A stretch of DNA of 64,000 nt from an uncultured Gammaproteobacteria bacterium (GTDB lineage: Bacteria; Patescibacteriota; Microgenomatia; UBA10105; UBA927), in assembly GCA_964445435.1 (NCBI GenBank), contig CAYUKU010000001.1, positions 44,384-108,383 of the forward strand. The letters run 5' to 3'. Every line of letters begins with the position of its first letter. The first letter of the stretch is position 1. Position numbers and translations under genes: made by a program. The notes below the pieces were generated by a model, which saw only the letters and a program-made list of their open reading frames with translations, made no database searches and was not told the origin of the DNA. Positions 3,401-64,000 of the stretch are shown piece by piece.

Positions 3401-3401
3401 G

Positions 3402-3473
3402 TGGGCCCGCTTGGTGACGATCCAAGCGCCCCCATGTTATAAGCATGGTGCTCTACCGCTGAGCTACGGGCCC
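3402..3473 (-). tRNA. tRNA with anticodon UAU (tRNA-Ile, AUA-reading), 72 nt
   Basis: The reverse complement folds as a canonical cloverleaf. Acceptor GGGCCCG/CGGGCCC, D-arm GCTC-AGCGGTA-GAGC, anticodon stem CCATG/CATGG with loop CTTATAA (T33, anticodon TAT, A37), 5-nt variable loop, T-arm CTTGG-ATCGTCA-CCAAG, discriminator A, no encoded CCA. Confidence 0.75.
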
Positions 3474-10523: not shown

Positions 10524-10640
10524 AGTTGGCTTTGGCCTCTCCTTTGACTCGAAGGATACGCGTATCTGAAACCTGCGACCGGACTATCACCGTTGCGGTA
10601 CAGTTCCCGAGTTTCACGGGATTCGGAGTTTCGGATATGA

Positions 10641-11198: not shown

Positions 11199-13628
11199 CT
11201 AACACTCTGAGTATCCGCAGCTGTAGCATTTCTTGCAGGACTCTTCAAATACAAGACTCCCCTCCCCGCAGCTCGGACACAGATCGACGGTAACCATGCG
11301 TTTTTCCGTCAAAAGCATTTGCTGTGCTGGCACAGTCATCGGCTTTTCTGCCGGCTCCACTTGCGGTGCGTCCGTGTGGACAGTATGACCGTTCGTATGT
11401 CCATTTGCCTGTGCAGGCTTGGCATCGGTATTAATGGCAACTACGTCTTCCAAACGATGTTTCGTGAAAAATCCAAAATGCCGATCTATGACTTTTGCAA
11501 CCCCGTCCGGCAGACTTCGAACCCTGTTTTCACCAAAACCCATACTTCGCGCACCACCAATACCGATAAGCTCTGCTGCTATCTTATGAGCCCGTTCGAT
11601 AGCTGGGATGGGCGAGGCCATTCGGAGGGTTAGAGATATAAGCCGACCCATCGCCTCAGCCATTGCCGTCACATCACTCCCCGCTTTTCCGACGTTAATA
11701 AATACCTCAAGAGGTCGGTTGCCACCATTCGTATTAATGGTCACGTACGCCTGACCGACCGGGGTTTCTACCTGGTAGGTAGAACCGTGGACTACCATAG
11801 GTCTCGGTTTTACTTCGGGTACCGCTGGCTCTGCCGGCTTGGCAACTTCCTCTTTTTTTGGTTCTTCTTTCCGTTCCAATACGCCCTGCCTACTGCCCTC
11901 TCTCATGTAGGTAATTCCCTTACACCCTTGTTCATATGCCAACGTGTACAGGCGCTTCACGTCTTCTACCGTGTGCGTATTGGGTGCATTAACGGTTTTA
12001 CTTATGGACGCATCAACGTACTTCTGGATGGTAGCCTGCACGAAGACGTGATCTTCGGGTGTCAGGTCATTTGCGGATACGAACCATGCTGGCCGCTCTT
12101 CCTTCGTGGGTTCCCGTCCGCTGGTTTTCTTGAAATCTTCATACCATGCTTCGTACAGCGGATGTCTCAAAATATGCTCTCCCAGCCTGCTTCTTCGTAT
12201 GAACTCGAATTCATACACGGGCTCAATACCGCTTGATACGCCGGCCAGAAGCGATGTCGTTCCCGTCGGCGCCTGTTGAAGGATAACGCTGTTTCGCACG
12301 CCGTACTTTTTAATTTTCTTCTTTATCCTCTCTGGAAGTTGTTTGATGAAGTACGCCTCCAGATGTTTTTTGATTTCGATTTTTGGAAAAGCACCTTTTT
12401 CCTTGGCAATGTCGGCTGAAGCCTCATACGCCGCATCGCGGATAGTGCGGTAAATTTTGTCGATAACCGGCAGGCTTTCGGGCGATCCGTACCGGAGCTT
12501 CATCTTAATCAGTGCATCGCCCAGCCCCATGGTGCCAAGACCAATCCGACGTTCTCCCTGCTGCTGTACTTTTCGTATTTCGTCAAAAACGTAGAAATCC
12601 GCGTCGATCACGTCATCCTGAAACCGTACACCGATTTTGGCAACCTCTGCCAGGCGGTCATAATCCATTTCACCCTTGTCGTTCACGAGTGCAGCGACAT
12701 TTATGGAACACAGGTTGCATACCCCCCAGCTGGGAAGCCCTTCTTCACCACACGGATTTACGCAGTTTACGTACTCGAAATAGTAATTATTAAACCATTT
12801 GTTATAGCGCTCCATAAATACGACCCCGGGCTCCGCGCTTCTCCACGCGGCCTGTGCGATAAGATCCCACAGCGCCCGGGCTTTGAGCGTCTTATGGACC
12901 ACCGTTTTCTTGCCCATCGCAATCCAGTTGGGAAGATATCCATCCCATTTGGTGTCATAGTCAGGATCCGTCTTATCCGGAAACACGAGATTCCAGTCTG
13001 CATCGTTTTTCACCGCGTCCATAAATGCATCAGATACACAGACGGAAAGATTGGCTCCGTTTATCCGCGAAAGATCCTGTTTGACGGTGATAAATTCCTC
13101 GATATCCGGATGCCAATCCCACAACATAAGCATGAGCGCGCCGCGACGGCTACCACCTTGCTGGATAATATCTTTCGTCGCAACGGAAAAAAGCTCCGCC
13201 CAATTGCATGGACCGGAGGAAAATCCGTTTACCTTCGTAACCCGTGCCCCGCGTGGTCGAAGACTCGAAAGATTAATCCCCACTCCTCCACCGCGCGACA
13301 TGATTTCCACCATTTGGGAAAGCGTTTTGAGAATTCCCTGCCTGGAATCATGGGGACTTGGTATGACAAAACAATTGTAAAAGGTTACTTTGTATCCTGT
13401 TCCTGCGCCTGAAAGAATCCGACCCCCCGGTACAAACACGAAGTCCTGCATTGCCCCATAAAACTTATCCTCCCACTCCTGCCGCTTGGCTTTCGGTTCG
13501 ACTTGTGCAACGGCGTGAGCAACCCTTCGCCACATTTCCTCGGGAGTTTTCTCAATGGGAGCACCCTTTTCGTCTTTGACGGCGTATCTGTCTGCAAAAA
13601 CGTTTTGTCGGATTCCTGTTAATTCCAT
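11199..13628 (-). CDS. nrdJ: ribonucleoside-diphosphate/triphosphate reductase, class II (adenosylcobalamin-dependent)
   Basis: 809 aa. NCFV, CNLCSIN and SCVNPCGE active-site regions. C-terminal Zn-ribbon CPSCGEGSLVFEESCKKCYSCGYSEC. Sits in an nrdR-nrdJ-adenosyltransferase operon. Confidence 0.85.
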   Translation of the reverse strand: MELTGIRQNVFADRYAVKDEKGAPIEKTPEEMWRRVAHAVAQVEPKAKRQEWEDKFYGAMQDFVFVPGGRILSGAGTGYKVTFYNCFVIPSPHDSRQGILKTLSQMVEIMSRGGGVGINLSSLRPRGARVTKVNGFSSGPCNWAELFSVATKDIIQQGGSRRGALMLMLWDWHPDIEEFITVKQDLSRINGANLSVCVSDAFMDAVKNDADWNLVFPDKTDPDYDTKWDGYLPNWIAMGKKTVVHKTLKARALWDLIAQAAWRSAEPGVVFMERYNKWFNNYYFEYVNCVNPCGEEGLPSWGVCNLCSINVAALVNDKGEMDYDRLAEVAKIGVRFQDDVIDADFYVFDEIRKVQQQGERRIGLGTMGLGDALIKMKLRYGSPESLPVIDKIYRTIRDAAYEASADIAKEKGAFPKIEIKKHLEAYFIKQLPERIKKKIKKYGVRNSVILQQAPTGTTSLLAGVSSGIEPVYEFEFIRRSRLGEHILRHPLYEAWYEDFKKTSGREPTKEERPAWFVSANDLTPEDHVFVQATIQKYVDASISKTVNAPNTHTVEDVKRLYTLAYEQGCKGITYMREGSRQGVLERKEEPKKEEVAKPAEPAVPEVKPRPMVVHGSTYQVETPVGQAYVTINTNGGNRPLEVFINVGKAGSDVTAMAEAMGRLISLTLRMASPIPAIERAHKIAAELIGIGGARSMGFGENRVRSLPDGVAKVIDRHFGFFTKHRLEDVVAINTDAKPAQANGHTNGHTVHTDAPQVEPAEKPMTVPAQQMLLTEKRMVTVDLCPSCGEGSLVFEESCKKCYSCGYSEC

Positions 13629-24392: not shown

Positions 24393-24995
24393 TTATCCTG
24401 AAACGAACCGTTTTTCGACCTCGTTCCAGTTCACGACATTCCACCATGCTCTAATGTAATCCGCCCGCATGTTTTGATACTTAAGGTAGTATGCGTGTTC
24501 CCAGACGTCCAATCCAAGAATGGGAGTCTTCCCTTCCATAACAGGACTATCCTGATTTGGCGTGTCCATGATGTCTAATTTTCCTCCTGATACTACAAGC
24601 CAAACCCATCCGCTTCCGAATCGTCCCATCCCGGCAGTACTAAACTTCTCCTGAAACCCCTGGATACTGCCAAACGTCGAACTTAGTGCATCTTTTAACG
24701 TACCTGCCGGTTCTTTTTGTGCATTCGGCGCCATCACCTGCCAGAAAAGGCTATGATTTGCGTGACCTCCGCCGTTATTTCGGACCTTAGTACGGACGGT
24801 TTCAGGAATCAGTGAAAGGTCAGCTATCAACTGCTCAACGGGCATGCGCAACAAATCTTCCTGACCCGCAAGGGCATCATTGAGATTTTTCACATACGCA
24901 GCATGGTGTTTTCCGTGATGAATCTGCATCGTGCGTTCGTCGATATACGGTTCAAGTGCATTTGCCGCATACGGCAATTCGGGAAGAGTAAACAT
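24393..24995 (-). CDS. sodA: Fe/Mn superoxide dismutase
   Basis: [31 protein letters not shown]...DVWEHAYYL canonical metal ligands. Confidence 0.9.
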
Positions 24996-25083
24996 ACGAA
25001 ACCTCCTTTGGGATAAACATTGTACGCTAGCCTACATTATTATATACCATGCAGAAAAGCCACCCGATCGGTATAATAGAGGG

Positions 25084-27315
25084 ATGTTCGCTTCACGCAT
25101 AAAATTAGCCGCACAGTGGGTGCAAAAAAAATTACCGAAAAAGCTTACCAACGGCAAACTGTCCAGGCGCCTCGGATATGCTTTTTGGCTTTTGCCTCTA
25201 TCCATCGTCATTTCCTCTTACCTTTTGATTCTGAAAGATCTCCCCTCTCCTACAAAACTCGGTAGGTATGATATACCGCTGGCAACGAAAATATACGACA
25301 GAAACGGTCAATTGTTGTTTGATATCTTTGCCGACGAAAACCGCACCGCCGTACCGCTTGCCGAAATTCCCGTGCACGTAAGACAGGCAACTATCGCCAT
25401 AGAAGATAAGGATTTCTATAAACACCAAGGCATTAATCCTGTCGGTGGCATACTGCGAGCCATCTCTTCAAGTATCACCCGAAAACGGCTTGAGGGCGGA
25501 TCGACCATTACCCAGCAACTCGTTAAATCAGCTCTCCTCACTCCGGAGCGCACTATCATCAGAAAGATTAAAGAAGCTATCCTGGCCATTTGGGTCGAAG
25601 CGCTCTATTCAAAAGATAAGATTCTCGAACTCTACCTCAACCAAGTGCCGTATGGAGGCACAGCGTGGGGAGTCGAATCTGCAGCGGAAAAATATTTCGG
25701 AAAATCAGTGCGGGACCTGACGTTGGCAGAGTCTGCGCTTCTTGCTGGTTTACCGCAAGCGCCCACCCGGTACTCACCGTTCGGCGCATACCCGGAATAT
25801 GCGAAAAACCGACAGCGAGAAGTCCTGCGAAGAATGACGGAAGACGGCTACATAACTCATGAACAAGCCGAAGAAGCGGATAGAGCAGAACTTGTTTATA
25901 AGAGAGAAGAGGGTATAAAAGCAGGACATTTCGTCATGTACGTCAAGCAACAACTGGTAGAAAAGTACGGTGAGGCACTCGTTGAACGCGGCGGGCTAAA
26001 AGTAACCACAACCCTCGACGCTAACCTGCAGGAGTATGCCCAGGCAACGGTCGCTGCAGAAATCGCAAAACTCTCCCGCCTTCGGGTTGGGAACGGAGCG
26101 GCTCTCATCACCAAGCCCTCAACCGGGGAAATACTCGCTATGGTTGGAAGTACAGATTATTTTGCGACTCCCTCCGGGAGCTATAACGTAACAACGGCGC
26201 TTCGGCAACCCGGTTCATCGATCAAACCCATTAATTACGCAATCGGCATTGAAAACAGAATCGTCACCCCCGGAACCGTATTCCTCGACATTCCGACCTG
26301 CTTTGGGGTTACCGGTCAACCTAACTATTGTCCCAAGAATTACGACGGAAAATTTCATGGCCCTGTTGCCCTTCGCATGGCACTTGGAAATTCGTTCAAT
26401 ATACCGGCAGTGAAAATGCTAAAACTTAATTCAGTCGAAACCATGATTGCCTCCGCATCGGCCTTCGGTCTGGATACGCTTCAAGACCCGAGTCGTTATG
26501 GCTTGTCCCTTGCCTTGGGAGGCGGTGAAGTACGCATGATCGACATGGCCGAAGCATTCGGAGTTTTTGCAAACGGCGGTATCAGGAAAGACCTTGTATC
26601 CATACTCAAGGTTGTCGATAAAAACGGAAAAACGCTTGACGAGTATTCTGACCCGAATCTCAATCGGGATATACCCTCTCAACTCCTGCTCCAGGGACCG
26701 AGAGTGGTTTCCCAAGAAACGGCATTTCTCATTTCCCACATACTCTTGGATAATAACGCGCGCATTCAAGCATTCGGACCGTCATCCGAACTCGTCATCC
26801 CGCAACATGCAGTTTCCGTTAAAACAGGAACGACAGACGATTTACGGGACAACTGGACCATCGGCTACACCCCACAATATCTCGTCGCCACCTGGGTAGG
26901 AAACAATGATAATTCCCCTATGAACCGTGCGCTCGTCTCCGGCGTTACCGGAGCCGCTCCTATTTGGAACAAATTAATGCGACGCGTTCTTCAGGGCGCC
27001 TCAGATATCTGGCCAAAACAGCCTGACGGGGTAGTCGGCGCACGCATATGCTCTCTCTCTGGTCTTCTGCCACCAAACGACGGGGATGATGCAGGATGTC
27101 CAATCCGATTTGAGTATTTTATAAAGGGTACCGTGCCCACACAACGGGAAGGCTTGAAACAATCGGTGTTGATCGATAAGGCAACGGGCGATATTGCCGC
27201 ACCCGGGAAAACCGATAATGTTGAACCACAGGAACATATCGTCCTGAAGGACGGCATTTCCACGTATTGTTTGGATTGTCCCCATCCCACCGAAAATCCG
27301 ACGCCCGCACCCTAA
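25084..27315 (+). CDS. class A penicillin-binding protein (PBP1A; GT51 transglycosylase + transpeptidase)
   Basis: TM anchor. GT51 motifs (IAIEDKDFYKHQGIN, RKRLEGGSTITQQL). Transpeptidase SxxK context (PGSSIKP) and KTGTT. The 5' ORF extension overlapping sodA is judged spurious. Confidence 0.85.
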   Translation: MFASRIKLAAQWVQKKLPKKLTNGKLSRRLGYAFWLLPLSIVISSYLLILKDLPSPTKLGRYDIPLATKIYDRNGQLLFDIFADENRTAVPLAEIPVHVRQATIAIEDKDFYKHQGINPVGGILRAISSSITRKRLEGGSTITQQLVKSALLTPERTIIRKIKEAILAIWVEALYSKDKILELYLNQVPYGGTAWGVESAAEKYFGKSVRDLTLAESALLAGLPQAPTRYSPFGAYPEYAKNRQREVLRRMTEDGYITHEQAEEADRAELVYKREEGIKAGHFVMYVKQQLVEKYGEALVERGGLKVTTTLDANLQEYAQATVAAEIAKLSRLRVGNGAALITKPSTGEILAMVGSTDYFATPSGSYNVTTALRQPGSSIKPINYAIGIENRIVTPGTVFLDIPTCFGVTGQPNYCPKNYDGKFHGPVALRMALGNSFNIPAVKMLKLNSVETMIASASAFGLDTLQDPSRYGLSLALGGGEVRMIDMAEAFGVFANGGIRKDLVSILKVVDKNGKTLDEYSDPNLNRDIPSQLLLQGPRVVSQETAFLISHILLDNNARIQAFGPSSELVIPQHAVSVKTGTTDDLRDNWTIGYTPQYLVATWVGNNDNSPMNRALVSGVTGAAPIWNKLMRRVLQGASDIWPKQPDGVVGARICSLSGLLPPNDGDDAGCPIRFEYFIKGTVPTQREGLKQSVLIDKATGDIAAPGKTDNVEPQEHIVLKDGISTYCLDCPHPTENPTPAP

Positions 27316-27371: not shown

Positions 27372-29705
27372 ATGGCGCGCCAAAATAACCCAAGCACTTC
27401 ACCTGACCCCCGCGGTAACATATTCGTACAGCTTCTCATAGGTATTCTTACCGTACTTATCGGAATCGGCCGTGTAGTTCAGTTCCCCTTTCGGTTGCCG
27501 TTTCTCCTTGCCAAACTCCTCAAACCTAAACGGAAGCCAGGCAGACCGAGGAAACACAAAAAATTTTCAGATACGTTTTCAAAAATTCAGCTGCCAAAAT
27601 TCCGCATTCCCCAAATGCTACGTGTCACAATTCCACGACTGCCTTCTTTGCACATTTCCTTTCCTAAGGTACCGCGAGTTGTATTGCCGCATGTATCAAT
27701 GCCCACCATTACCATCCTCCCGTCGAGCGAAGTGCTGGATCGGATTAAATTCTTTACTTCCGGGGTTGCGGTAACGATTATTTTCTTTTTTGCGCCATAC
27801 GTGACGTACTCATGGCTTCGGGCACTGCCGAATCCCGAACTGCTCTCAAAAAGGGATATCCAGGTCACCACAAAAATATTTGACCGGAATGGACTCCTTC
27901 TGTATGAAATCTACGCGGACCAGAACCGCACGCCCATTCCGCTTTCAGAAATTCCGGCGTACGTAAAAGAGGCGACAATCGCAATTGAAGACCAGGATTT
28001 CTACCGACACAACGGCATATCACTTCGGGGCATTATCCGCGCCGTGCGGGAGACGCTCCTCAATAACCAGATTCAGGGAGGTTCAACAATCACCCAGCAG
28101 CTTATCAAATCCGCGCTTCTTACGCCGGAAGTTAAACTCACCAGGAAAATAAAAGAAATTATCCTTGCCTTCTGGGCAGAACGGTTATACACCAAGAACC
28201 AAATTCTAGAAATGTATCTTAACCAGGTTCCGTATGGCGGCACTGCATGGGGTATCGAAGCTGCGAGTCAGACATATTTCAACAAGTCTGTGGTCGAATT
28301 AAGCCTCGCGGAAGCGGCACTTCTTGCCGGACTTCCTCAGGCTCCCACAGAATATTCCCCCTTTGGGAGCCATCCCCAAAAAGCATTTGAACGGCAAAAA
28401 GAAGTGTTGCGTCGCATGGTCGAAGACCGATATATAACAGTTAAAGAGGAAAGCGACGCGCTCAATACTCCAATCGTGTTTGCACAGCCCCGTACGTCTA
28501 TCAAAGCTCCGCATTTTGTCATGTACGTAAAAAATCTTCTCGAAAAAGAGTATGGACTACGACTTGTAGAGCAAGGCGGTCTTCGCATCACAACGTCACT
28601 TGATCTTTCACTTCAGGAAAAAGCAGAAGAAATTGTTGCAAGCCACATCAACAATCTCGCGGCACTTCAGGTAGGCAATGGAGCGGCACTCATAACAAAC
28701 CCAAAAACAGGGGAAATTCTCTCAATGGTCGGCAGTAAGAATTACTTTGATCTCGCAGGCGAGGGAAATGTGAACGTCACAACGAGCTTACGACAACCAG
28801 GTTCATCGATAAAAGTCATTACCTACGCAGCGGCATTGGAAAACGGATTTACGCCCGCTTCCATCATCGATGACTCACCCGTTATCTACCAAACACCCGG
28901 CAGTCCGCCGTATGTTCCGGTAAACTACGATGGAAGATTCCACGGACCTACACCTCTAAGGTATGCGCTTGCAAATTCATATAACATACCGGCCGTAAAA
29001 ATACTTGCAAAACTCGGAGTCCAAACCATGATCAATACAGGACGCCTTATGGGAATCACGTCGTGGTCTGATGAAAGCAGATACGGGCTCTCTCTCACTT
29101 TGGGAGGCGGGGATGTCACTATGCTGGAAATGGCACAAGTATACGGAACGCTTGCCAACGAAGGCAAACACGTTACGCTCATGCCTATTTTAGAAATCAC
29201 GGATTACACGGGTCGCGTTATCAAACGAAACAAACCCAAGGGAGCAACACAGGCAATCAAACCGGAAGTCGCCTGGCTTATAAGTAACATTCTTAGTGAC
29301 AATACGGCACGAATCGCGGCGTTTGGTCCGAACTCAAGTCTCGTCATCCCGGGTAAAACCGTTTCGGTGAAAACTGGCACGAGCAATGAGAAACGCGACA
29401 ACTGGACCATCGGATATACGCCGTCCTTTGTCGTATCGGTGTGGGTGGGAAATAACGACAATAGTCCGATGAACCCATATCTCACATCCGGTGTAACGGG
29501 AGCAGCTCCGATATGGCACGATCTTATGGTGGAACTCCTGAAGGATACACCCGATGAAATACCAAGCAAGCCCGATTCTGTTGTGTCCGTACCATGCTAC
29601 TTCGGCAGGCCAGAATACTTCATCTCGGGAACTCAACCCTCATCCGGTCGCTGCGCAGCAGTCCCAACCGCAACGCCAAGCGCCTCTGTTGCACCGCTTC
29701 GCTAG
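27372..29705 (+). CDS. class A penicillin-binding protein, second tandem paralog
   Basis: Same motif set (IAIEDQDFYRHNGIS, QGGSTITQQL, PGSSIKV, KTGTS). Unique Pro/Lys-rich N-terminal tail before the TM helix. Confidence 0.85.
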   Translation: MARQNNPSTSPDPRGNIFVQLLIGILTVLIGIGRVVQFPFRLPFLLAKLLKPKRKPGRPRKHKKFSDTFSKIQLPKFRIPQMLRVTIPRLPSLHISFPKVPRVVLPHVSMPTITILPSSEVLDRIKFFTSGVAVTIIFFFAPYVTYSWLRALPNPELLSKRDIQVTTKIFDRNGLLLYEIYADQNRTPIPLSEIPAYVKEATIAIEDQDFYRHNGISLRGIIRAVRETLLNNQIQGGSTITQQLIKSALLTPEVKLTRKIKEIILAFWAERLYTKNQILEMYLNQVPYGGTAWGIEAASQTYFNKSVVELSLAEAALLAGLPQAPTEYSPFGSHPQKAFERQKEVLRRMVEDRYITVKEESDALNTPIVFAQPRTSIKAPHFVMYVKNLLEKEYGLRLVEQGGLRITTSLDLSLQEKAEEIVASHINNLAALQVGNGAALITNPKTGEILSMVGSKNYFDLAGEGNVNVTTSLRQPGSSIKVITYAAALENGFTPASIIDDSPVIYQTPGSPPYVPVNYDGRFHGPTPLRYALANSYNIPAVKILAKLGVQTMINTGRLMGITSWSDESRYGLSLTLGGGDVTMLEMAQVYGTLANEGKHVTLMPILEITDYTGRVIKRNKPKGATQAIKPEVAWLISNILSDNTARIAAFGPNSSLVIPGKTVSVKTGTSNEKRDNWTIGYTPSFVVSVWVGNNDNSPMNPYLTSGVTGAAPIWHDLMVELLKDTPDEIPSKPDSVVSVPCYFGRPEYFISGTQPSSGRCAAVPTATPSASVAPLR

Positions 29706-52398: not shown

Positions 52399-53013
52399 TC
52401 ACGAATGAGAACTTAACGAAAACGAGCCGGTTGCAACTCTTCCAGCGCGCCTATAGTTTGCGAAGATTACTCCGCTTGGAGAAGTTGTGGCATCTAATAA
52501 TGTAAAGGCTGCGGGAATAGCTCCCTCGCCGAATAATCGTTTCCCTTTTCCGAGCGTTATCGGGAAAATCTTTAACCAGAGCTCATCAACTAAGTCATGT
52601 TTGAGAAGCGTTTGAAGCAAATTCCCGCTGCCGTACACGTGTAAATTAGGACCGTTTTCGGCTTTCAGTTTCTTTAATCTTTCGACTACGTTATTATGTA
52701 TAACCACCGAGTTATTCCATGTAGTTTTTTTGAGCGTGTGTGAAACGACATACTTTGTGGCATCGTTGACTCCCGGCCAATTGTCTTCGTGTTGCGGCCA
52801 ATACGAAGCAAAAATTTCAAACGTTTTCCTGCCCAGAAGCAGACTGAACGGCTGCTTCATCTGCTTAGCCATCATTTTTCCTGAATAATCATCGAAATAT
52901 GGGACCGTCCATCCGCCATATGTAAAGTTACCGGATCTATCTTCTCCCGGCCCACCCGGAGCTTGCAAAATACCATCAAGCGTTACAAATTCAAGCGCAA
53001 TTATTTTCCTCAT
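52399..53013 (-). CDS. RibD C-terminal domain / dihydrofolate-reductase-like protein
   Basis: [26 protein letters not shown]-terminus typical of the RibD_C/YwjB family. Confidence 0.75.
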
Positions 53014-53064
53014 AAGGCTGGATGTGATTGTCGTCTCCGTTTCAGTGAAGCTGAAAATACTTTT

Positions 53065-53565
53065 TTATTCGCCGGCTTTTTTCATTGCTTCAAGGTCAAG
53101 TTTCTTCATTGGCAGAAAAGCGGCGGTTACCGCCTCAACCTTTTGCGGGTCGCGCATATACTCACCCAAAATCCTTGGAACTATTTGCCATGTGACGCCA
53201 AAGCGGTCTTGACACCATCCGCATTGTTCAGCTTCAGGAACAGCTGAAAGCTTTTCCCAGAAGAAGTCAATTTCTTCCTGCGTTTCGCACTCAACTATGA
53301 AGGATGTCGAGCCATTCAGCTTGAATTGCTCAAGAGGGCCACCGTTCAGAAACATAAAACTGGTGCCATCCAGCTCGCATTCAGCTGTTAACACCGACCC
53401 GGCGGGCCTGCCGGAAACGTCTTCTGATGCCTTCGGTGATTTGGTAACATCTCTCATGGTTCCTCTGTGATCACCTGGCGCGGCATTGAACGTATCTGTG
53501 TAGTACTGCGCTGCCTCTTCCCCGTTATTCTTGGCAAACCAGAGACATGTAATGAGTTTACTCAT
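53065..53565 (-). CDS. VOC-family protein (PhnB / 3-demethylubiquinone-9 3-methyltransferase-like)
   Basis: KLITCLWFAKNNGEEAAQYYTDTF...GWCQDRFGVTWQIVP. Confidence 0.7.
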   Translation of the reverse strand: MSKLITCLWFAKNNGEEAAQYYTDTFNAAPGDHRGTMRDVTKSPKASEDVSGRPAGSVLTAECELDGTSFMFLNGGPLEQFKLNGSTSFIVECETQEEIDFFWEKLSAVPEAEQCGWCQDRFGVTWQIVPRILGEYMRDPQKVEAVTAAFLPMKKLDLEAMKKAGE

Positions 53566-53566
53566 A

Positions 53567-53995
53567 TTATTTACTGGAAGAATATTCAATGATCCATTCA
53601 ATACCGTATTTATCTCGAAACATACCCGCGTAGGAGCCCCATGGGCTGTCCCCCATGGGCCCTTCTACATCTCCTCCGGCTGAAAGGCCCAGAAATAATC
53701 TGTCCGCCTCTTCTTTGCTTTCTACGCGTACCAAAATTTTGCTTCGATTTTCTTTCTCATTTACTCGCCCCAAAACCTCCGGCACGTCATTGGCTATAAG
53801 CATGGTAGTGGCACCGATGGGTAAAGCGATATACATTATTTTGTTTTCCTCTTTTTCTGCTACGGGGAATTCAGCGCTCGCGATATCTTTAAAGCGCACC
53901 ACTTTCGCAAACTCGCCACCAAAAACGGATTTATAAAAGGTAAACGCCTCTTCTGCGTTTCCGTTGAAGTTGATCCAGGGGTGTAATGCGGCCAT
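53567..53995 (-). CDS. VOC/glyoxalase-family protein (PhnB-like)
   Basis: HPWINFNGNAEEAFTFYKSVFGGEF...FRDKYGIEWIIEY. Confidence 0.65.
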   Translation of the reverse strand: MAALHPWINFNGNAEEAFTFYKSVFGGEFAKVVRFKDIASAEFPVAEKEENKIMYIALPIGATTMLIANDVPEVLGRVNEKENRSKILVRVESKEEADRLFLGLSAGGDVEGPMGDSPWGSYAGMFRDKYGIEWIIEYSSSK

Positions 53996-54158
53996 ACTGT
54001 AATCTATATCACACTAAAGCAAGTAAATAAAACAGTTTTGTCCGAGAAACGGGAATTTTCCGACACATTGACTAGTGACTTACCTAGAATATCCAGAATT
54101 TACCACCAAAGAAATTAATCGATTTCTCAACTTTTAGTCAAAGCAAGATGCCAATCAT

Positions 54159-54486
54159 TATTGATTTTCATAGACTTTCTTACCGGCTTCTGTGATCAGT
54201 CCGAGTCTCAGTAATTCAGCATATCTTTTTTGTTCATCGCTGACCACTGACTGTTCTTTTTTCTGGGAGTAAACCGCACCATATAGGTTTCTTTATCAAT
54301 GCCTTTTTCCATGCTGTCTATCCAACCAAAGCACAAAGCCTCATCCAGTAGATTTTGAAAAGTGACAGTCTGCTTCCCGCTGGACTTCTTGTGTAAAGTT
54401 ACCCAAATCTCTTTTTCATTCTGGTGATACTATCGTAGCCAATGACGCCACTCGACTTGAGCTTGAGGGGAAATAGTGTTTGTCAT
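54159..54486 (-). pseudogene. YdeI/OmpD-associated-family gene remnant (at least 2 frameshifts)
   Basis: Minus-strand translation gives MTNTISPQAQVEWRHWLR* / QNEKEIWVTLHKKSSGKQTVTFQNLLDEALCFGWIDSMEKGIDKETYMVRFTPRKKNSQWSAMNKKDMLNY* / LRLGLITEAGKKVYENQ* in three different frames. No ORF of 60 aa or more in the track. Confidence 0.6.
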
Positions 54487-54543
54487 ATCATTAGTTTAAT
54501 GGGAAATTGCCCTTTTGCCTAATTTGCTTCATTCGAAAAATGG

Positions 54544-55013
54544 ATGAAAAATCTGTCAAAACTTGTTATTTCTATTGTTGGTTGTGAAGTAGTAGGAATT
54601 CTGGGGAGCGTATTTACGGTTTCCTCAATTTCCTCTTGGTACGCCACTTTAAATAAGCCCTTCTTTGCGCCACCGAACTGGATATTTGGGCCTGTTTGGA
54701 CACTCCTATATTTTCTAATGGGCGTAGCGTTTTATCTGATCTGGAAACAAGGTTGGAAGAAGAAAAAAGTTGCTACCGCCGGCAAATACTTTTTCGCACA
54801 ATTAGGGCTCAACTTTATCTGATCACCCGTTTTCTTTGGCTTACGATCGCCGCTATTGGCTCTATGTGTTATTATCGTCCTGTTGGCGCTGATCGTGATG
54901 ACAATCAAAAAATTTTATCCCCTGTCCAGATGGGCAGCCTACCTGCTTGTCCCATATCTTTTCTGGGTGAGCTTTGCTTCCGCACTGAACGCTGCCATCG
55001 CTATTCTTAATTG
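54544..55013 (+). pseudogene. tspO: TspO/MBR (tryptophan-rich sensory protein) gene interrupted by a single in-frame TGA at a conserved Trp position
   Basis: WYATLNKPFFAPPNWIFGPVWTLLY...LNFI-TGA-SPVFFGLRSP...AAYLLVPYLFWVSFASALNAAI is a full TspO in one frame. The TGA at 54820-54822 aligns with the conserved W of the LNxxWxPxFF motif. Confidence 0.65.
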
Positions 55014-55109
55014 ATCTTTGGCTCCACCTCATAGATATGTTCCGTAACCGCGTGATTGAGATAAGCATACCACTCGTCAATCTCAAAACACTGTTTGAAA
55101 CGTTTCACA

Positions 55110-55721
55110 TCACACCTGCGTTCGCTTGACCATGATGGTTGGAACACGAATAGTAAAACCACTTTCTTCCGGACTAATGTATATGGTTTCATATTTTTCC
55201 TGCAATTTCTCCCGAAGCTTTTCCAGATATACGTCTTTTTTTAGTTTTCTGCCTCCCGTCTGGTGTGCCCAAAAAAGAGCCATAGCATCGCTCCCGTCAC
55301 CTGCTTGTATCGTAAACGGCAGATGTATTTTTTGCGCGTATGCTTCTATCTCATGGATAAATGCCTGAACACTTTGGTTTTTCGCATGAAACAGTCTGTC
55401 CCTGTACATGAGTGAGAATGGATAATATCTCGTTATAAAACTCCAAAATCGGTCGTGGATAGTCATGATGACCAGAACAATTATTACCCGTATGCCTTTG
55501 TTAAAGTCCGAACGTCTTATTTCAACATTTCTTGGCACATGGACGAGCTTGTAAATATACCGAGCAAATGGTTTTGGCAAAAATAGGATAAGATATACAC
55601 CGAAAAGAAGGAGAAACAGAAAAAATAATCCTATCGTAATATGAAGTAATTCAAGGAATTTGAGAAACAGAAAAAACGCTACTACTGAACCCAAAACTAT
55701 ATACTGTGTTTTTACGCTCAT
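55110..55721 (-). CDS. membrane protein, unknown function
   Basis: Two N-terminal TM helices plus a soluble C-terminal domain. Confidence 0.4.
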   Translation of the reverse strand: MSVKTQYIVLGSVVAFFLFLKFLELLHITIGLFFLFLLLFGVYLILFLPKPFARYIYKLVHVPRNVEIRRSDFNKGIRVIIVLVIMTIHDRFWSFITRYYPFSLMYRDRLFHAKNQSVQAFIHEIEAYAQKIHLPFTIQAGDGSDAMALFWAHQTGGRKLKKDVYLEKLREKLQEKYETIYISPEESGFTIRVPTIMVKRTQV

Positions 55722-55992
55722 ACATCAGTTAACTTGTAATTCCCTTACCCGTATTTTTTTCACGTCGCCTATAATGGTGTTTTCATCATACTCCTGTGGA
55801 CGAACATTGATAATAAGACCGATATTTTCTGGCTCATGAAATAGCTCTTCTGCGTATCTAAATCTATGGCCAAATGCCGTTGAAAGAGATACGGGCTTAC
55901 CTGATTGTTAACCACCTTTAACCACCTTGGAGGTGAAATATTAGGTAGCCTATTAAGACAAAGTCAATCAGGTACTAAACCAAAGACAAAAC

Positions 55993-56148
55993 TTAAACCT
56001 TAACCTTAATAAGATCCCTAATACGACGTTCAACCACGCTCTTATACAAATATTGATACGCAGTCACTACATTTTCCATAAGTTGTTCTTTTTGTTCAGA
56101 AGTAGCCGTATCAAGATTTGTTGTAACACTAATTTTCCGTTTACTTCT
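55993..56148 (-). CDS. small ORF (about 52 aa) translationally coupled to the upstream nuclease gene
   Basis: MRSKRKISVTTNLDTATSEQKEQLMENVVTAYQYLYKSVVERRIRDLIKVKV. Its start overlaps the nuclease stop by 8 nt. Confidence 0.3.
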   Translation of the reverse strand, partial: RSKRKISVTTNLDTATSEQKEQLMENVVTAYQYLYKSVVERRIRDLIKVKV

Positions 56149-56896
56149 CATATTGCCTAACAGCACTGCGATATTTACAGAAGTCACAGTCTTCCCCTGA
56201 TTCAGGTATGCCGTCACTTTTCAAACATTCAATGGCTTTGAGAATAGTTCCCTCAACCCAATCTGTATTGCCTTTATAGGGAATGAGTTTGATATCAAAT
56301 TCCAATTTGGCGTCAAAGGCCTCTTTGTCGGTATTGCCATTGCAGTAGACGAAATAGCCAGTATCAGACACTTTGAAGCCGTTTTCTCTAAATAGCCATT
56401 GGTATATTTCCATCTGACGTTTGTATCCATCCTGCCACTCGGCATCTAGGGTTACTTCTTCATCTTTGGATGTAGCCTTGTAGTCAACCACGATATATTC
56501 TCTCGATGGCGTCACCCACATATCATCCACACCACCCGTGATAACAACGTTCGTGTTATCCACTCGGACAGTTATACCGCCCCGTAGTGAATCCCGCCAT
56601 TCGTCGATCTTTTCGTGGGCTAGTGGTATAGCGTCGATGCCGTACTTCTCCATTAATGGATGTCTGGTGCCTTTGGCCCGATGAATATCAAACTCTTTTT
56701 TCAGGAGTTTATCGACGGCAGAGTTAAGGGAAAAAGGGTATCCAGGCGGTTGGGCCACACCAAGTCTACGATCCAGATAAAAACAACGGGGACATGTAAT
56801 AAAATTGTTAATTTTTCCACGACTCAAACGAAACAACTCACTAGAGTTTGGATCGTAAATATTTCTTGTTCGGTTTGGATTGTAATACTGGCTCAT
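56141..56896 (-). CDS. Cas4/RecB-like PD-(D/E)xK nuclease with Cys cluster
   Basis: N-terminal CPRCFY and C-terminal C-x12-CDFC cysteines. Core D...VVDYKATSK (D-x-K) nuclease motif. Confidence 0.55.
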   Translation of the reverse strand: MSQYYNPNRTRNIYDPNSSELFRLSRGKINNFITCPRCFYLDRRLGVAQPPGYPFSLNSAVDKLLKKEFDIHRAKGTRHPLMEKYGIDAIPLAHEKIDEWRDSLRGGITVRVDNTNVVITGGVDDMWVTPSREYIVVDYKATSKDEEVTLDAEWQDGYKRQMEIYQWLFRENGFKVSDTGYFVYCNGNTDKEAFDAKLEFDIKLIPYKGNTDWVEGTILKAIECLKSDGIPESGEDCDFCKYRSAVRQYEK

Positions 56897-59379
56897 TGTT
56901 TGTTTACTTTATTACTTATGATTTTTTGCACCAATCGTAAATCCTCGTCGTTATAAAGCCTAAATCTCACAGATTGATACTGGTTATCTCGTACCAATAC
57001 TGAATCTGGATGTGACAACCCATTTTTTAATTGTTCTACTATTTCGGGGGTAGATGAGCCGAGTTCGCCATATACCCAATGATTTGCGTAATAGTAAAAC
57101 AACAACAATTCTTCACCCCGTTTAATACTGTGATACGAACCAGCTCCACCTTTTGAAATGTACACATCGCCGTCAGGGAACTCTTCATCAACCCACTGAG
57201 GAATAGACGTAACAGCTTTTTTGACAAATTCGTCTTTCACTCTGGCAATTGTTTCATCTTCTGTTTCTGGTGGTTTAGTTACGCTTACCTTAACCTCCTC
57301 CTCGTTATCGTCATCACCCTTTACGCCCCGCAACACCTGGGCAAACCATTCAATCGCCGCTTCCGCTTCTCGTTGCAATACAAAGTTAATTTCTTTGATG
57401 TGTTTAACCGCATTACGGAAATCTTTTAGAGTTATAAATCGTTTCTCTGTTTCGTACTTAGAGCCAAAGAATATTTCGAAGTGTTCCCAGTTTTTGAGAA
57501 TGATATTGGAATAATCCATGACGTCGCATTGACACAAACGATCATATGCATCCAGTTTCTCCTCAACAACATAGGGGTTCTTACGCAGGTATTCTGCTAG
57601 TTTTACTTTTACTTTCCCTTGAATATCTCCTGGCACTACCTGATTCCAATAATCTTTGCCAATTTTTTCGGACAATTGACTATTGATAAGTAAACGCAGT
57701 TTTAATTCAATGTCGTCTAAAGCTTTATTTGCATTTACGCCAAGGATCTGGATAATCTTTGATCCCGTTAGTCTTTCAAACTCTCGCTTGATAGCTTCTG
57801 CACGCTCTTTGATAAACAATTTATAGTTATCTTCTTTAATGGCATCACCGTAGTTGATTAAATGCGTTTCCAGTGTGTCATTAAATTCAGGATTTTCATT
57901 TTGATAATGGGCGAAATAATCGCTAGGTTTTTGATCTAATATTTCCTTATTCAATTCAGCAGGGATAAAGCAAAAGTTGGCTATTAAATTTTCCCCACCA
58001 ATCCTGTTTTTTGAGAGAAAACGCCTCGGGAAGATATGATGTTTTTCTGGACTATTAAAGCTTGAGTAGAAATGTCGATCCATTGGAATAAGTCCATTGG
58101 TTTTGAAATGCCTTGGGTTTCTACGGGCCAACATACAGAAGATAGCATTTCTAAGCGCAGATTTTGTACCAATTGTGGCAGTGGCAATCTTTTCCTCATC
58201 CGCCGTAATAGCAAAGTTTATCTTCACATCTTTGCCATTTAGGAGCTTATCGAATATTTCCCGACGATCTTCTCCCATCTTGCTTTCCATAGCTGCTGTG
58301 TATCGCTCGCTTAAAGATGATTTCCAAAACCACTCATGTACCACATCTGTCATCTCTTTACTTAATGCCCGCCCATCCGTCTTGAAATACAGATAGGCCA
58401 ATAGCGGAATGAATGACGGGTATGGAGTAAATTCAAAGATTTTAACCCCTAGATTGGCCGACAAATGCTCAACCGCCAACTCAATCGCATTAGCAATCTC
58501 ATTCCAATTCTCCTTTATTTCCTCTTTTTTTAGCTGTAATTGATATATCTTGCTACAAAACCCTTTGAGAATGAGCGAAATGGCGTGTGTAACTACTTCT
58601 GGGCTAATATCTCCAAAACCTTTCGATGCAATCCTTTCCCGCAATTGGTTGTAATTCTCCTTTAGATCAAAATCTTCACCCCATGTACTAGCTACCACCA
58701 AATCGAACAACGACAATTTCTTACCACCCTGGTTGATGCGTTCAAATATGACGCTAGCATTGTTGAGTTCGACGTTATAGACAGTTACCACACTAAGGGG
58801 GTAAGTGGTGAATATCCGATGACACTCCATGAACACTTCCTGCCGTTCGGGTGACAGTTTGCGAAACATCTGCATGTGATCTTCACCCAAGACTTTGTAT
58901 AGAGGAATATATCTATCGCTTTCCCGCTTCACCTCAAAGACTGATTGGTTGCCATTATCATCAGGCTCTTTTTTGTAGTAATCCAAGTCTAAGCAGATTT
59001 GCGAACAGTCAACCAATTTTGTTTTATTGCCATCCTTAAACTCAACCCGAACACCATGCCAGGCGGCATAGAGTGAACAAATACGTTGTTGGCCGTCTAG
59101 GATGAATTTCAATTTTTCATCCTCTCTTGGTTTAGGTGGTGTTATTCCAAGTTCAGGTAGATCCCGATAAAACAGATTGTATTTGCCCGTTGTTTCCCAA
59201 AGAAAAAAACTACCAATCGGATACTCTTTGTAAATGCTATCCAACAAGGCCACAATTTTGCTTCGTTCCCACACAAAGTCCCGTTGAAATCGGGGAACAC
59301 GAAGAGTTCCTTCTTTTAGGTAAGTAAGTAGGGAAATGATTTGTTTGTTTCCCTCTGATTCAATTTTTGGTAGCTTCAT
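56893..59379 (-). CDS. GmrSD-like DUF262 (ParB/Srx-fold, DGQQR) + DUF1524 (His-Me finger) protein with C-terminal HEPN-like and unknown domains
   Basis: N-terminus VPRFQRDFVWERSKIVALLDSIYKEYPIGSFFLWE ... ILDGQQR. Middle EKHHIFPRRFL...NLIANFCFIPAELNKEI (DUF1524). Later Rx4H motif FRNAVKHI. The final about 130 aa is aromatic-rich (LLLFYYYANHWVYGE). Confidence 0.65.
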   Translation of the reverse strand: MKLPKIESEGNKQIISLLTYLKEGTLRVPRFQRDFVWERSKIVALLDSIYKEYPIGSFFLWETTGKYNLFYRDLPELGITPPKPREDEKLKFILDGQQRICSLYAAWHGVRVEFKDGNKTKLVDCSQICLDLDYYKKEPDDNGNQSVFEVKRESDRYIPLYKVLGEDHMQMFRKLSPERQEVFMECHRIFTTYPLSVVTVYNVELNNASVIFERINQGGKKLSLFDLVVASTWGEDFDLKENYNQLRERIASKGFGDISPEVVTHAISLILKGFCSKIYQLQLKKEEIKENWNEIANAIELAVEHLSANLGVKIFEFTPYPSFIPLLAYLYFKTDGRALSKEMTDVVHEWFWKSSLSERYTAAMESKMGEDRREIFDKLLNGKDVKINFAITADEEKIATATIGTKSALRNAIFCMLARRNPRHFKTNGLIPMDRHFYSSFNSPEKHHIFPRRFLSKNRIGGENLIANFCFIPAELNKEILDQKPSDYFAHYQNENPEFNDTLETHLINYGDAIKEDNYKLFIKERAEAIKREFERLTGSKIIQILGVNANKALDDIELKLRLLINSQLSEKIGKDYWNQVVPGDIQGKVKVKLAEYLRKNPYVVEEKLDAYDRLCQCDVMDYSNIILKNWEHFEIFFGSKYETEKRFITLKDFRNAVKHIKEINFVLQREAEAAIEWFAQVLRGVKGDDDNEEEVKVSVTKPPETEDETIARVKDEFVKKAVTSIPQWVDEEFPDGDVYISKGGAGSYHSIKRGEELLLFYYYANHWVYGELGSSTPEIVEQLKNGLSHPDSVLVRDNQYQSVRFRLYNDEDLRLVQKIISNKVNKQ

Positions 59380-59382
59380 AAT

Positions 59383-62300
59383 TTATTTTTCTCCCGTCCA
59401 ATCTTTTGCTAATAACTCCGCCTGTTCCAATACAATCTTGGTAGCTCCATCCTGTTTGTCTGGCGGGTAGTTATATTTCTTGAGCAACCGCTTGATATAA
59501 ACCCGTAATTTAGCTTGAATGCTTTCCTTGATCGTCCAGTCGATAGTGGTATTTTTACGGAGCATATCCACCAGCTCCCGAGCCATTGCCTTAAGGGTTT
59601 CATCACCTAGTTCTCTAATTGCGCTTTCGTTATTAGAGAGTGCGTCATAAAATGCCACTTCTTCCTCGGTTAATCCCATGCCCTTGCCTTTGTCTTTTTC
59701 GTCTTTGATCTTCTTGGCTAGTTCTAGAAGTTCTGCGATTACCTGCGCCGCTTCAATCGTCCTGTTCTGGTACTTACGAATTGTTTCCGCGAGCATTGAG
59801 GCAAATGAACGAGATTTAACCAGATTTGTTCTGGCAAAAGTTCGGAGTTCATCGTTTAAGAGTCTTTTCAGAAGTTCCAAAGCTACGTTTTTGTGCTTCA
59901 TATTTTTCACTTCTTCCAAAAACTCCTCGGAAAATATCGAAATGTCAGGAGTCTTGATCCCAGCTGCAGAATAGATATCTATCACCGCGTCCGATGTCAC
60001 CGCCGAAGATACTATCTGTTTAATCGCTACGTCATACTCTTCATCAGTTGGCCCTCCGGAACGTGCTTCCATTTTCAGAATCGCGCCCCGTACAATCTGG
60101 AAAAATCCTACTTCATCTCTAATCTCAATTGCTTTCTCATGGGGAACGGCTAGTGAAAATGCCTTCGATAATTCTGATACCGCCGCAAGATACCGTTTTT
60201 TGCCATCAGGAAGCCCCAAGATAAAATCAGTTGCGCCAGAAATTGTTTGCGTGCGTAAAGAGGCAGCAGAGCTAAAGTAGTTTTGGTAGCCAAACCCGTG
60301 ATACATTCCCCGAACCACTTCGTATTTTTCGAGCATTACCGATACCGCCTCGTCTTGAGGAATAGCTGTTTCCTGTCTATCGGATTCCGAATAATAAGAT
60401 AGAGCCTCCTTTAATTCAGGCGCAATGCCGATGTAGTCAACGATAAGTCCGCCTTGTTTGTCCTTATAGACACGATTGACGCGAGCAATAGCTTGCATCA
60501 AACCATGCCCCTGCATGGGTTTGTCTATGTACATCGTATGCAAGGACGGCACGTCAAAACCCGTCAGCCACATATCCCGCACAATAACTAGTTTCAGGGA
60601 ATCGTCGGGATCTTTCATTCGTCTAGCCATTTCATCTAATGCATGTTTGGCCCGAATGTGGGGTTGATACTCCTCTGGATCAGCCGCCGATCCTGTCATC
60701 ACAACTTTCAAAAATCCTTTGTTGTCATCTCCCTCATGCCAGTTTGGCCGAAGTTTTATGATTGCGTTGTATAGTTCCACCGCAATCCTACGGCTCATCG
60801 CCACGATCATGCCTTTGCCATCAATGGCAGAGAGTCTATTTTCAAAATGATCCACCACGTCACGGGCAATAAGAGCAATGCGTTTTTCCGATCCCACCAT
60901 TGCCTCGAGCCTTGCCCACTTACTCTTCAATTTTTCCTTGCGCTCAACTTCTTCACCCTCGGTTAGTTCTTCAAATTCGGGATCAATCTTGGGCTGTTCT
61001 TCTTTCTTTAGTTCAATACGGGCTAGTCTGGCCTCGTAGTAGATCGGTACTGTGGCATGATCTTCAACCGCACGGGTAACATCGTATACATCGACATATT
61101 CACCAAATACCGCCCGTGTGTTTCGATCTGTCAGCTCGACAGGAGTGCCAGTAAAACCGATAAAGGAGGCATTGGGGAGAGCAGAGCGCATGTGTTTGGC
61201 AAAGCCATGAATAAATTCATACTGGCTCCGATGGGCTTCGTCGGCAATAACCACAATGTTTTTTCGATCAGACAGCATCGGATATTCCGTGTGTCCATTT
61301 TGAGGTAAGAATTTTTGAATAGTCGTAAATATCACCCCACCCGATGCCACCCGTAACAACTCTTGTAACTCTTCTCGGTTCTCTGCCTGTTTAGGAGTTT
61401 GCCGTAAGAGTTCATGACAACGAGAAAAGATGCCAAACAGTTGGTTGTCCAAGTCGTTGCGATCGGTTAAGACGACGAGAGTCGGGTTGTTGAGAGTTTG
61501 GATGATTTTACCCGCATAAAACGTCATGGTTAGGCTCTTTCCCGATCCTTGCGTATGCCAAACTACACCCGCTCGTCTGTCTCCCTCTTCCTGTGTCGCC
61601 TTAATCGTGCTTTCAATGGCCTTATTGGTAGCAAAATATTGGTGATACGCTGCCGCTTTTTTGATAGTATGCTCGCCATCGGTTTCAAAAACAATGAAGT
61701 TGGCGAGTAAGTCCAAGAGTCGGGTTTTATCAAAAATACCTTTTAAGAGTACCTCTAGCTGGGGTAGTGCATTGGAGGCTAGCTCTTTCCCATCTACAGT
61801 TCGCCAACGGGTAAACCATTCCAGGTTGGCCGAAAGCGTCCCCATGCGGGCCTCAATTCCGTCACTAATGATGGAAAGTTCGTTATAGGCAAACAGAGTG
61901 GGAATATCCCGTTTGTAGGTTTGGATTTGGTTAAAGGCATTTTTAACTGTGGCTTTTTCATCTCCTGGGTTTTTTAGTTCGATAACAACTACAGGTAACC
62001 CATTCACAAACACCACCACATCGGGCCGACGATTCACATTGTTTTCAATAATGGTGTATTGGTTAACAGCCAAAAAGTCGTTATTTGCAACGTCGCCAAA
62101 GTACACCAATCGTACTTTATCACCAGCTACAGTTCCATCAGAGCGCATATATTCCACATCCACACCATCCCGCAGATAGGAATGAAAGATTTTGTTATTG
62201 ATGATCAGATTCGGGGTAGTGTGGGCCACCTGCACCACTTTCTTAAACGCCTCTTCTTTAGCATCTTGGGGAATATTGGGATTTAGTTTTTCAATAGCCG

Positions 62301-62463
62301 TAAGCAATCTGTCCTCAAGTACCACGTCGCCATAACTAGCCCGTTCGGGATGTTCGCCATCGGGAGGTGGGGCAATCTCTGGGCCACCAATAACCGAATA
62401 ACCCAACCCCTCGAGCCATTCAAGTGTTGCTAGTTCTAGATCTGTTTCTGTGTATTTAGTCAT
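59383..62463 (-). CDS. hsdR: type I restriction enzyme R subunit
   Basis: 1026 aa. N-terminal nuclease domain. SF2 helicase motifs [24 protein letters not shown] and QAIARVNR. Confidence 0.9.
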
Positions 62464-62468
62464 ATTTA

Positions 62469-63623
62469 TTAAAATGATATTTTGTCATCATCCAATTCCA
62501 CTTCAAAGGAAGTTACAACTTTTGTATCGGCAGGTTGTACCTCTTCTGTAGAATTGTTAACGATAAATTTTGCCCTTTCAAATAATTCATCAAATGTAAT
62601 AATTTCAGGGTTAGATAAATTTCTCCTGTATAACTCAAAAGTCTTTTTCTTAGAATTGGAGTCCAACTGATTACAATGGCCGATTACCAATAATCCTTTT
62701 GGGCTGCATGTGGTAATACCGCCTAATTCTTCTCTGTTTTCGTCTGTTCTTGAACCCTCAGTTTCCCATTTATTTGCGTTAACTTGGAGCTGTGATACAC
62801 CACCAACTAATTCTTTTCCAATCTCCCATGCTCCATTTCTATATTCATCATTCCCGAGTAATGCAGTACTTGGTTTTTTGATTTCTACTAATACTGTAAA
62901 TCTGCCATCAGCGGCTGTATCCATCAGATAATCTCCACGTTGATTTCCTGAACCAAATACATTGCCTCCACCGTACTGAGGCTGGGATGTTATCAAATGA
63001 AGATATTGGTATTTCAACCCTAATCCGAAAATCCACTCATTGTTCTTGAAGAAATTTTGCCAATAGGCCTCGTCCTTATCTTCTGTTAATGAATTTTCAA
63101 ATTCTCTTAAGGCTGTTCCCCGTTCAGTTTGCACCCGAGAATATGCAAGCCGTGTGGCCAAGTGTGGCTCCTTTTGTACTAACTGTTCCCAAACCTCATT
63201 TCCGTAATCCTGCTCCAATAACTTGGTAACGAAACTCTTTCTCTTTTCATCAACCCTGATAATTTCGTCCTCCTTGGCCACGACATAGCTCTGTTCTAAC
63301 CAGGGTAATTCTTGCTTTGAAATGCGATATAGATTTACGAGTGCTTCAAACAAATTTTTTAATGCCAAGCTTTTAAGCTCAAATTTAATTCCCTCGTCTT
63401 TTTTTAATTCGTTGAGTTTTACCGAAGATAAATCTTGCCATTCATCATGCGCCCCTTTTCTTTGCACGATAATATACCCCTTAAGTGTGGCCTTAGGATC
63501 TTTCGGGTTGTCTTTAATGACAACTCCTCGAAAGACTTTTCTAAAGGTACCGCTTTCTTCAATAACAACATCGTCTGTTTTTGCAACATTGCTCGACACT
63601 CTGGTTAATTGATATTGCTGCAT
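62469..63623 (-). CDS. PD-(D/E)xK nuclease, Shedu/DUF4263-like, inserted between hsdS and hsdR
   Basis: GDYLMD...[10 protein letters not shown] (D231/D235 ... E247-x-K249). C-terminal [11 protein letters not shown]. No Walker motif, so not PrrC. Confidence 0.4.
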
Positions 63624-63624
63624 A

Positions 63625-64000
63625 CTAATTTTTCACTCTTAATTTCCCACTCATTAATCTTGGTAATAGAGAATCTCGCAGTGCGCCCAATTGTTCGTTC
63701 TCATCCATTTTTGCATTGATTTCTTGATATATGGCTCCGCATATCTGATTAAATCGATCTAGAATATCCTTACTCGGTGACAATACTGACATTTGTTTTA
63801 GATGTGTTGGCCCAAAATTTGCTTGCACACTACCTGCTGATAATCGTATTTGTTCACTTAAAAATTCTTCAGATTGTAAATACTGATACATAAAGGGATA
63901 ACTTACATTATCTTGGGGCCTAAATCGAATAACGCTCGTATTAAGTAAAAGTGGTAGATGTGATTTGCGCACAATTGCATTTTTACCTAAAGTTCCCGAT
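63625..64000 (-). CDS. hsdS: type I restriction enzyme S subunit (C-terminal part; gene continues beyond window end)
   Basis: C-terminal conserved helix EQLGALRDSLLPRLMSGKLRV typical of HsdS. The ORF is open at the window edge. Confidence 0.75.
   Translation of the reverse strand, partial: SGTLGKNAIVRKSHLPLLLNTSVIRFRPQDNVSYPFMYQYLQSEEFLSEQIRLSAGSVQANFGPTHLKQMSVLSPSKDILDRFNQICGAIYQEINAKMDENEQLGALRDSLLPRLMSGKLRVKN

Follow-up and report, generated by a model that had tools for sequence, protein, structure and literature searches.

A Premature TGA at a Conserved Tryptophan Codon of TspO in an Uncultured Patescibacteria Genome: Very Probably a Recent, Strain-Specific Nonsense Mutation under the Standard Code

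The TspO gene in the 64,000-nucleotide stretch of DNA analysed here (the window) is interrupted by one in-frame TGA. The explanation that we hold with high confidence is a recent TGG-to-TGA nonsense mutation, which has made the gene a young, strain-specific pseudogene under the standard code. This reading is carried by the lesion itself, its absence from relatives, its recurrence in a second assembly, the standard use of stop codons across the window and the decay of a neighbouring gene. The event is ordinary gene decay and involves no altered genetic code. In the proposed course of events, one recent G-to-A transition would have turned the TGG of the conserved Trp93 into TGA in the window strain. 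The host, apparently a Gottesmanbacteria-like member of the Patescibacteria, would read this TGA as stop, so that only the first 92 residues would be made. Of the five transmembrane (TM) helices, the product would break off within TM3 and lack TM4 and TM5. Selection would be relaxed in the patch that holds TspO, where a neighbouring DUF8412 gene has two lesions and a variable defence island begins shortly after the end of TspO. The biological weight of the finding is small, as what is lost is an accessory membrane protein in a single strain, known from the genome of an uncultured member of the Patescibacteria. The coordinates of the features are collected in Table 1.

Table 1. Features of the TspO locus and the adjoining defence island (window coordinates).
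Feature	Position	Strand	Evidence
TspO/MBR gene, very probably now a pseudogene	54544..55014	+	Pfam PF03073 E=1.7e-51; 96% identity to intact 155-aa P0001; alignment to solved TspO structures
Premature TGA, codon 93, at conserved Trp of LNFIWSPVFFG	54820..54822	+	TGG in L001/L002; W in 11/11 homologs
Remaining translatable 92-aa ORF (TM1, TM2, most of TM3)	54544..54822	+	ORF list; called as gene in source record
DUF8412-family pseudogene, divergent from TspO	54158..54486	-	Alignment to L001 (intact 109 aa)
End of similarity to L001/L002	55015..55024	.	blastn of L001 vs window, alignment
Defence island, low GC (about 0.39)	55110-63972		Composition, Pfam of downstream ORFs
PD-(D/E)XK nuclease	56141-56896		Defence island
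GmrSD	56893-59379		Defence island
Type I restriction HsdR	59383-62463		Defence island
Shedu SduA	62469-63623		Defence island

The TspO Gene and Its Premature Stop

From its ATG, the TspO frame comprises 156 sense codons, one of which is replaced by the TGA, the only internal stop in the frame. With the stop read as W, the Pfam profile TspO_MBR (PF03073) was matched at 174.2 bits (cut-off 24) over profile positions 2–143 of 145. The translation could also be aligned to solved TspO structures (E values from 5e-24 to 5e-7), and the N-x-x-W-x-P-x-F-F motif is part of the alignment. The original prediction, which gave the gene as 54544–55013, was right in the start and in the presence of a full-length TspO, but the end is at 55014. 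The natural terminator (55012–55014) is also a TGA and matches the C-terminal position where the compared homologs end.

The same prediction placed the premature TGA exactly on a conserved tryptophan codon, and this was borne out by the alignments. The column of the stop is occupied by W in all 11 aligned close homologs (motif LNFIWSP[V/I]FFG), so that the stop falls on Trp in every sequence, and in the structures of R. sphaeroides TspO (8E7X/4UC1) it is aligned to the W of AQLAFNTLWTPVFFG. Thus, the window gene carries TGA in the place of the conserved Trp of the LNxxW-PxFF motif, and its five-TM reading frame is closed after 92 aa, compared with 155–156 aa in intact relatives. The gene is like the TspO/MBR family members of solved structure (R. 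sphaeroides 4UC1/8E7X, mouse TSPO 2MGY and Bacillus cereus TSPO 4RYI) in matching the full profile, but it differs from them in that the frame is broken at the conserved Trp and only 92 residues can be made under the standard code. The homologs compared are mostly of 155–156 aa and 72–96% identical, many of them from Microgenomates-type Patescibacteria; the nearest named homologs also come from Microgenomates-type CPR bacteria. A fragment of 92 residues should be unable to form the five-helix bundle of the solved structures, and we infer loss of function, the truncated TspO being in all likelihood non-functional.

The position of the lesion on a tryptophan codon was put in proportion by counting the single-base routes to a stop in the intact closest relative, which stood in for the ancestral sequence. 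There are 62 such routes; the eight TGG codons account for 16 of them, each a transition. The TGG share of nonsense routes is 26% at equal rates and rises to 40–55% with a transition/transversion ratio of 2–4. Since TspO is this rich in tryptophan, a nonsense lesion on a Trp codon is not improbable, and the conserved Trp is the single likeliest nonsense site in a "tryptophan-rich sensory protein".

Relatives Carrying the Intact Codon

The closest protein to TspO in a collection of 5.8 billion clusters, P0001, is intact, with 155 aa and 96% identity. The two contigs that carry it, L001 and L002, are 96% identical in nucleotides to window positions 53206–55024 and have the same local gene order, namely two 3-dmu-9_3-mt/glyoxalase-type genes, DUF8412 on the minus strand and TspO on the plus strand. 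Both have TGG at the position of the window TGA, from which the window differs by a single G-to-A transition. In a more distant sister lineage (L085–L088), TspO is 77% identical and intact with 156 aa; there the divergent DUF8412/TspO pair is kept, both genes being intact, and PD-(D/E)XK and GmrSD genes follow further downstream as in the window. The lesion is therefore absent from all of these close relatives with an intact TspO.

The search was extended to JGI metagenomes with a degenerate nucleotide pattern that codes for N-F-I-(W/stop)-S-P-(V/I)-F-F-G, in which TGG or TGA was accepted. It was matched by 62 metagenome contigs, and the codon was TGG in 62 of 62; an exact allele-specific pattern found no match in the JGI metagenomes. 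Among the other fetched loci with the motif, 24 have TGG, and the sole TGA was found in L083, which comes from the same strain as the window. As TGG is present in relatives and metagenomes and TGA in L083 alone, the TGA is private to the window strain. The original prediction had listed, as one option, that a TGG codon was recently mutated to TGA in an accessory patch undergoing decay. The TGG of the closest relative agrees with this, and so does the independent death of the neighbouring gene (see below).

Decay of the Neighbouring Gene and Selection on TspO

The DUF8412 gene has two lesions when it is aligned to the intact copy in L001: a TAG nonsense codon at 54430–54432, where L001 has CGG, and a 1-bp deletion in a T-run at 54226–54231. 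The DUF8412 label was taken from the precomputed annotation of the relatives' loci, and Pfam did not recognise the repaired window sequence. The copies adjoining TspO in L085–L088 have 112–115 aa. Between the window and L001, the DUF8412 gene shows 1 synonymous and 11 non-synonymous changes (dS 0.016, dN 0.044), which indicates relaxed constraint.

A different picture was obtained for TspO. Against L001 the whole gene has 14 synonymous and 6 non-synonymous changes (dN/dS 0.13), made up of 5 and 3 before the stop (dN/dS 0.17) and 9 and 3 after it (dN/dS 0.11). When the changes were polarised by outgroups, two amino-acid changes at most were found to be specific to the window, P5S and possibly V112, and downstream of the stop at most one is specific to the window lineage. 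Purifying selection is thus still visible on both sides of the stop, with dN/dS of about 0.1, and this signal implies a young lesion. Taken together, the substitution patterns suggest that the TspO lesion is probably very recent and that DUF8412 would have died earlier.

A conserved DUF8412–TspO module would have given meaning to the loss of both genes, but the idea was rejected. The pairing occurs in none of 80 GTDB loci and was seen only in the closest relatives, L001/L002 and L085–L088, which gives no ground for a general linkage. All pairs of same-frame open stretches split by one stop were also screened in the window; these were mostly noise or ordinary adjacent genes, adjacent same-frame pairs being seen at 8513, 49713 and 55725, and the screen established no other convincing interrupted gene.

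Compared with ordinary nonsense pseudogenes in bacterial accessory regions, the window TspO is nothing unusual. The likeness consists in a private single-base lesion, a disabled adjacent gene and an adjoining low-GC defence island; the particular feature here is a lesion so recent that the remaining gene is pristine. This feature is also a point that speaks against a young pseudogene, as no decay is seen downstream of the stop (9 synonymous against 3 non-synonymous changes). The undecayed downstream part is explained by a very young lesion, and equally by continued translation through readthrough.

Readthrough of the Stop

Among the alternatives, a leaky stop survives best. In this reading the TGA is real, but the near-cognate tRNA-Trp(CCA) decodes it now and then and gives a little full-length TspO, so that the gene is down-tuned and not dead. 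Near-cognate readthrough of UGA inserts Trp in E. coli and B. subtilis, and Trp is the residue required at codon 93; the part after the stop, moreover, still looks selected. On the other side, the base after the premature stop is U, and UGAU is an efficient termination context according to E. coli termination work. The TGA occurs in no relative, and nothing points to a maintained state; the low dN/dS is accounted for equally well by a young lesion, and the DUF8412 neighbour is clearly decaying. We consider a leaky stop unlikely on this balance, and readthrough of the UGA is presumably not appreciable. The more specific proposal, that a leaky UGA is being maintained and read at low frequency by tRNA-Trp to supply a trickle of full-length TspO in a Gottesmanbacteria-like bacterium, is given very little credence. 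If it were true, the leaky UGA would represent a single-codon "Trp-by-readthrough" state, a proposed intermediate toward UGA=Trp reassignment.

Sequencing and Assembly Error

A second alternative is an intact TspO with G, wrongly recorded as A, at 54822. In its favour, the lesion amounts to one base in a contig assembled from a metagenome, and the DUF8412 frameshift lies in a homopolymer run, a classic site of error. Nevertheless, the exact 92-aa truncated product is recorded both in the NCBI contig (248,106 bp) from which the window evidently comes and in the Logan assembly of SRR10095373. In the latter, contig L083 is equal to window positions 54543–62963 except for one base and carries the TspO TGA, while contig L084 is equal to 52496–54571 exactly and carries both DUF8412 lesions. 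The only difference between L083 and the window is at 60890 (L083 position 6348), where the window has G and L083 has T. Because of this difference L083 is not a copy of the window record, and the agreement of two non-copied assemblies on the TGA makes a consensus error unlikely, although the separate, k-mer-based assembly may share one sample with the source contig. Further, the TAG in DUF8412 needs two substitutions (CGG to TAG) and is reproduced in L084, and the long ORFs in other parts of the window (up to 1026 aa) speak against a noisy assembly. The sequencing error that had been raised as an option is thus weakened by the recurrence of the TGA in a separate assembly, and we judge an intact TspO behind a wrong base call to be decidedly improbable.

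Two observations were made on the Logan contigs in their own right. The T at 60890 in L083 creates a TAG, which splits hsdR into ORFs of 524 and 490 aa. This suggests that a loss-of-function allele is segregating for the restriction subunit HsdR. The contigs L084 and L083 overlap by only 29 bases (54543–54571), exactly at the TspO start; this suggests an assembly-graph branch and hence co-occurring strain variants at the TspO locus.

The Genetic Code of the Window

The TGA on a conserved Trp codon had been described in the original prediction as the signature expected for UGA=Trp decoding (code 4). This does not hold, as TGA is a working stop across the window and in TspO itself. To determine the stop usage, ORFs with a minimum of 100 aa were called under the standard bacterial code and picked greedily without overlap; the resulting 60 ORFs cover 57,099 of the 64,000 bases (89% of the window). 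These ORFs end in TAA (26), TGA (21) and TAG (13), in accordance with the earlier statement that UGA is used as stop in the rest of the window. Their TGG codons number 212, and in-frame TGA is absent from them by construction. The long ORFs supported by Pfam include HsdR (1026 aa), GmrSD (828 aa), ribonucleotide reductase (809 aa), two PBP1-type proteins and TypA. Under code 4, UGA would be unused as a terminator and in-frame TGA would be found at conserved Trp positions in many genes; within the window, it is found at codon 93 of TspO only, and 21 of the 60 ORFs as well as TspO end in TGA.

The lineage points in the same direction. TypA of the window is 75–80% identical to proteins named Candidatus Gottesmanbacteria or Patescibacteria, which would place the contig near Candidatus Gottesmanbacteria (Patescibacteria). 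UGA=Gly in Gracilibacteria and Absconditabacteria is the sole reassignment of UGA known in CPR bacteria, and UGA=Trp is found in Mycoplasmatales, Entomoplasmatales and some insect endosymbionts (PMC8629427). In its abstract, a 2026 paper gives UGA=Trp for Bacillota, Pseudomonadota, Verrucomicrobiota and Actinomycetota only (PMC13462651). The likeness of the window to code 4 consists in the one UGA of TspO at a Trp position, and its likeness to the code 25 lineages (UGA=Gly in Gracilibacteria and Absconditabacteria) in the membership of the same superphylum, CPR/Patescibacteria. It differs from them in that UGA ends about one third of the window ORFs, TspO included, and genome-wide in-frame UGA is absent; further differences are the Gottesmanbacteria-like lineage and the residue expected at codon 93 of TspO, which is Trp and not Gly.

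The related option of a recent horizontal acquisition of TspO from a UGA-recoding donor fails on the codon of the closest relative, which is TGG, and on composition, which is that of the contig. TspO has 7 TGG codons against 1 TGA, a GC content of 0.43 and a GC3 of 0.46, and ORFs outside the defence island mostly have GC3 of 0.43–0.58, so nothing foreign is seen in the comparison of GC3. Decoding of UGA as Trp, or a donor that does so, would account for a stop placed exactly on the conserved Trp codon. Against this stand the terminal TGA codons of TspO and of the 21 ORFs in a window whose genes need no other in-frame TGA, the TGG counts, the GC3, the TGG in the 96%-identical relative, a Gottesmanbacteria-like lineage outside the phyla listed for UGA=Trp in the 2026 paper (PMC13462651) and the fact that recoding in CPR goes to Gly (PMC8629427). 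Code 4 and a recoded donor were therefore ruled out, the probability left to them being minute, and the window gives no support to code 4, code 25 or a donor that uses either. A caution follows for similar cases: a lone in-frame TGA at a Trp codon of a Trp-rich gene should not count as evidence for an alternative code, and what settles the question is how stop codons are used on that contig and which codon the nearest relative carries.

Code 4 would also call for a tRNA-Trp(UCA) and for the absence of release factor 2. The sole tRNA found in the window, at 3401–3473 on the minus strand, is a tRNA-Ile with the anticodon UAU (ARAGORN; Rfam tRNA 56.6 bits). In most bacteria AUA is read by a lysidine-modified CAU tRNA, and a UAU isoacceptor is uncommon.

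Programmed Recoding and a Split Gene

Selenocysteine or another programmed recoding has an in-frame UGA in an otherwise intact gene in its favour, but we give it practically no chance, as a 77-nt stretch that spans the UGA and the sequence behind it is no more stable when folded than its shuffled versions (MFE −11.6 kcal/mol vs shuffle mean −12.6, z = +0.43, with 135 of 200 shuffles folding at least as well) and so show no SECIS-like hairpin, the Rfam search found no element at the UGA, and the 11 aligned homologs all have Trp at codon 93 and never Cys or Sec; selenocysteine is excluded for practical purposes. A functional split gene is also unlikely, since the first in-frame start past the stop, a TTG at 54856, gives a product of 52 aa without the end of TM3 and the start of TM4 and has no Shine-Dalgarno-like sequence upstream by eye.

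The Defence Island and Other Features of the Window

TspO is at the edge of a variable region. The similarity to L001 ends about 10 bp past the TspO stop, and there the low-GC defence island starts. Besides the genes listed in Table 1, the island holds a 203-aa membrane ORF without a family. Its PD-(D/E)XK and GmrSD pair is common to the window and the sister lineage (L085/L086), with about 80% nucleotide identity. An isolated exact match of 23 nt, TTAACCACCTTGGAGGTGAAATA, was found between window positions 55918–55940 and L001 positions 2830–2852. It has a short inverted repeat inside and is unique in the window. The copy in L001 stands roughly 40 nt before a gene that encodes an IS200/RAYT-like protein with an HYHLL motif. 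This match could mark the border of a cassette or be a regulatory site common to both.

Away from the TspO locus, an AdoCbl-II riboswitch match was observed at 10570–10637 on the minus strand, with 37.5 bits, barely above the gathering score of 36.5. The ORFs around it are 8048–8506, 8513–10501, 10641–11192 and 11199–13628. Those upstream encode a ribonucleotide reductase, with RNR barrel and TSCPD domains, and a PduO-type cobalamin adenosyltransferase. Those downstream, of 662 and 152 aa and without a Pfam match, are candidate B12-regulated genes. A homolog of VirD4/TraG-like type IV coupling proteins, with TrwB_AAD_bind, T4SS-DNA_transf and TraG-D_C domains, is encoded at 5689–8037 on the minus strand and is adjoined by a gene for a Pre-ATP-grasp domain protein (4226–5623, minus strand). 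Two genes for class A penicillin-binding proteins, with transglycosylase and transpeptidase, stand in tandem on the plus strand at 24931–27315 and 27372–29705.
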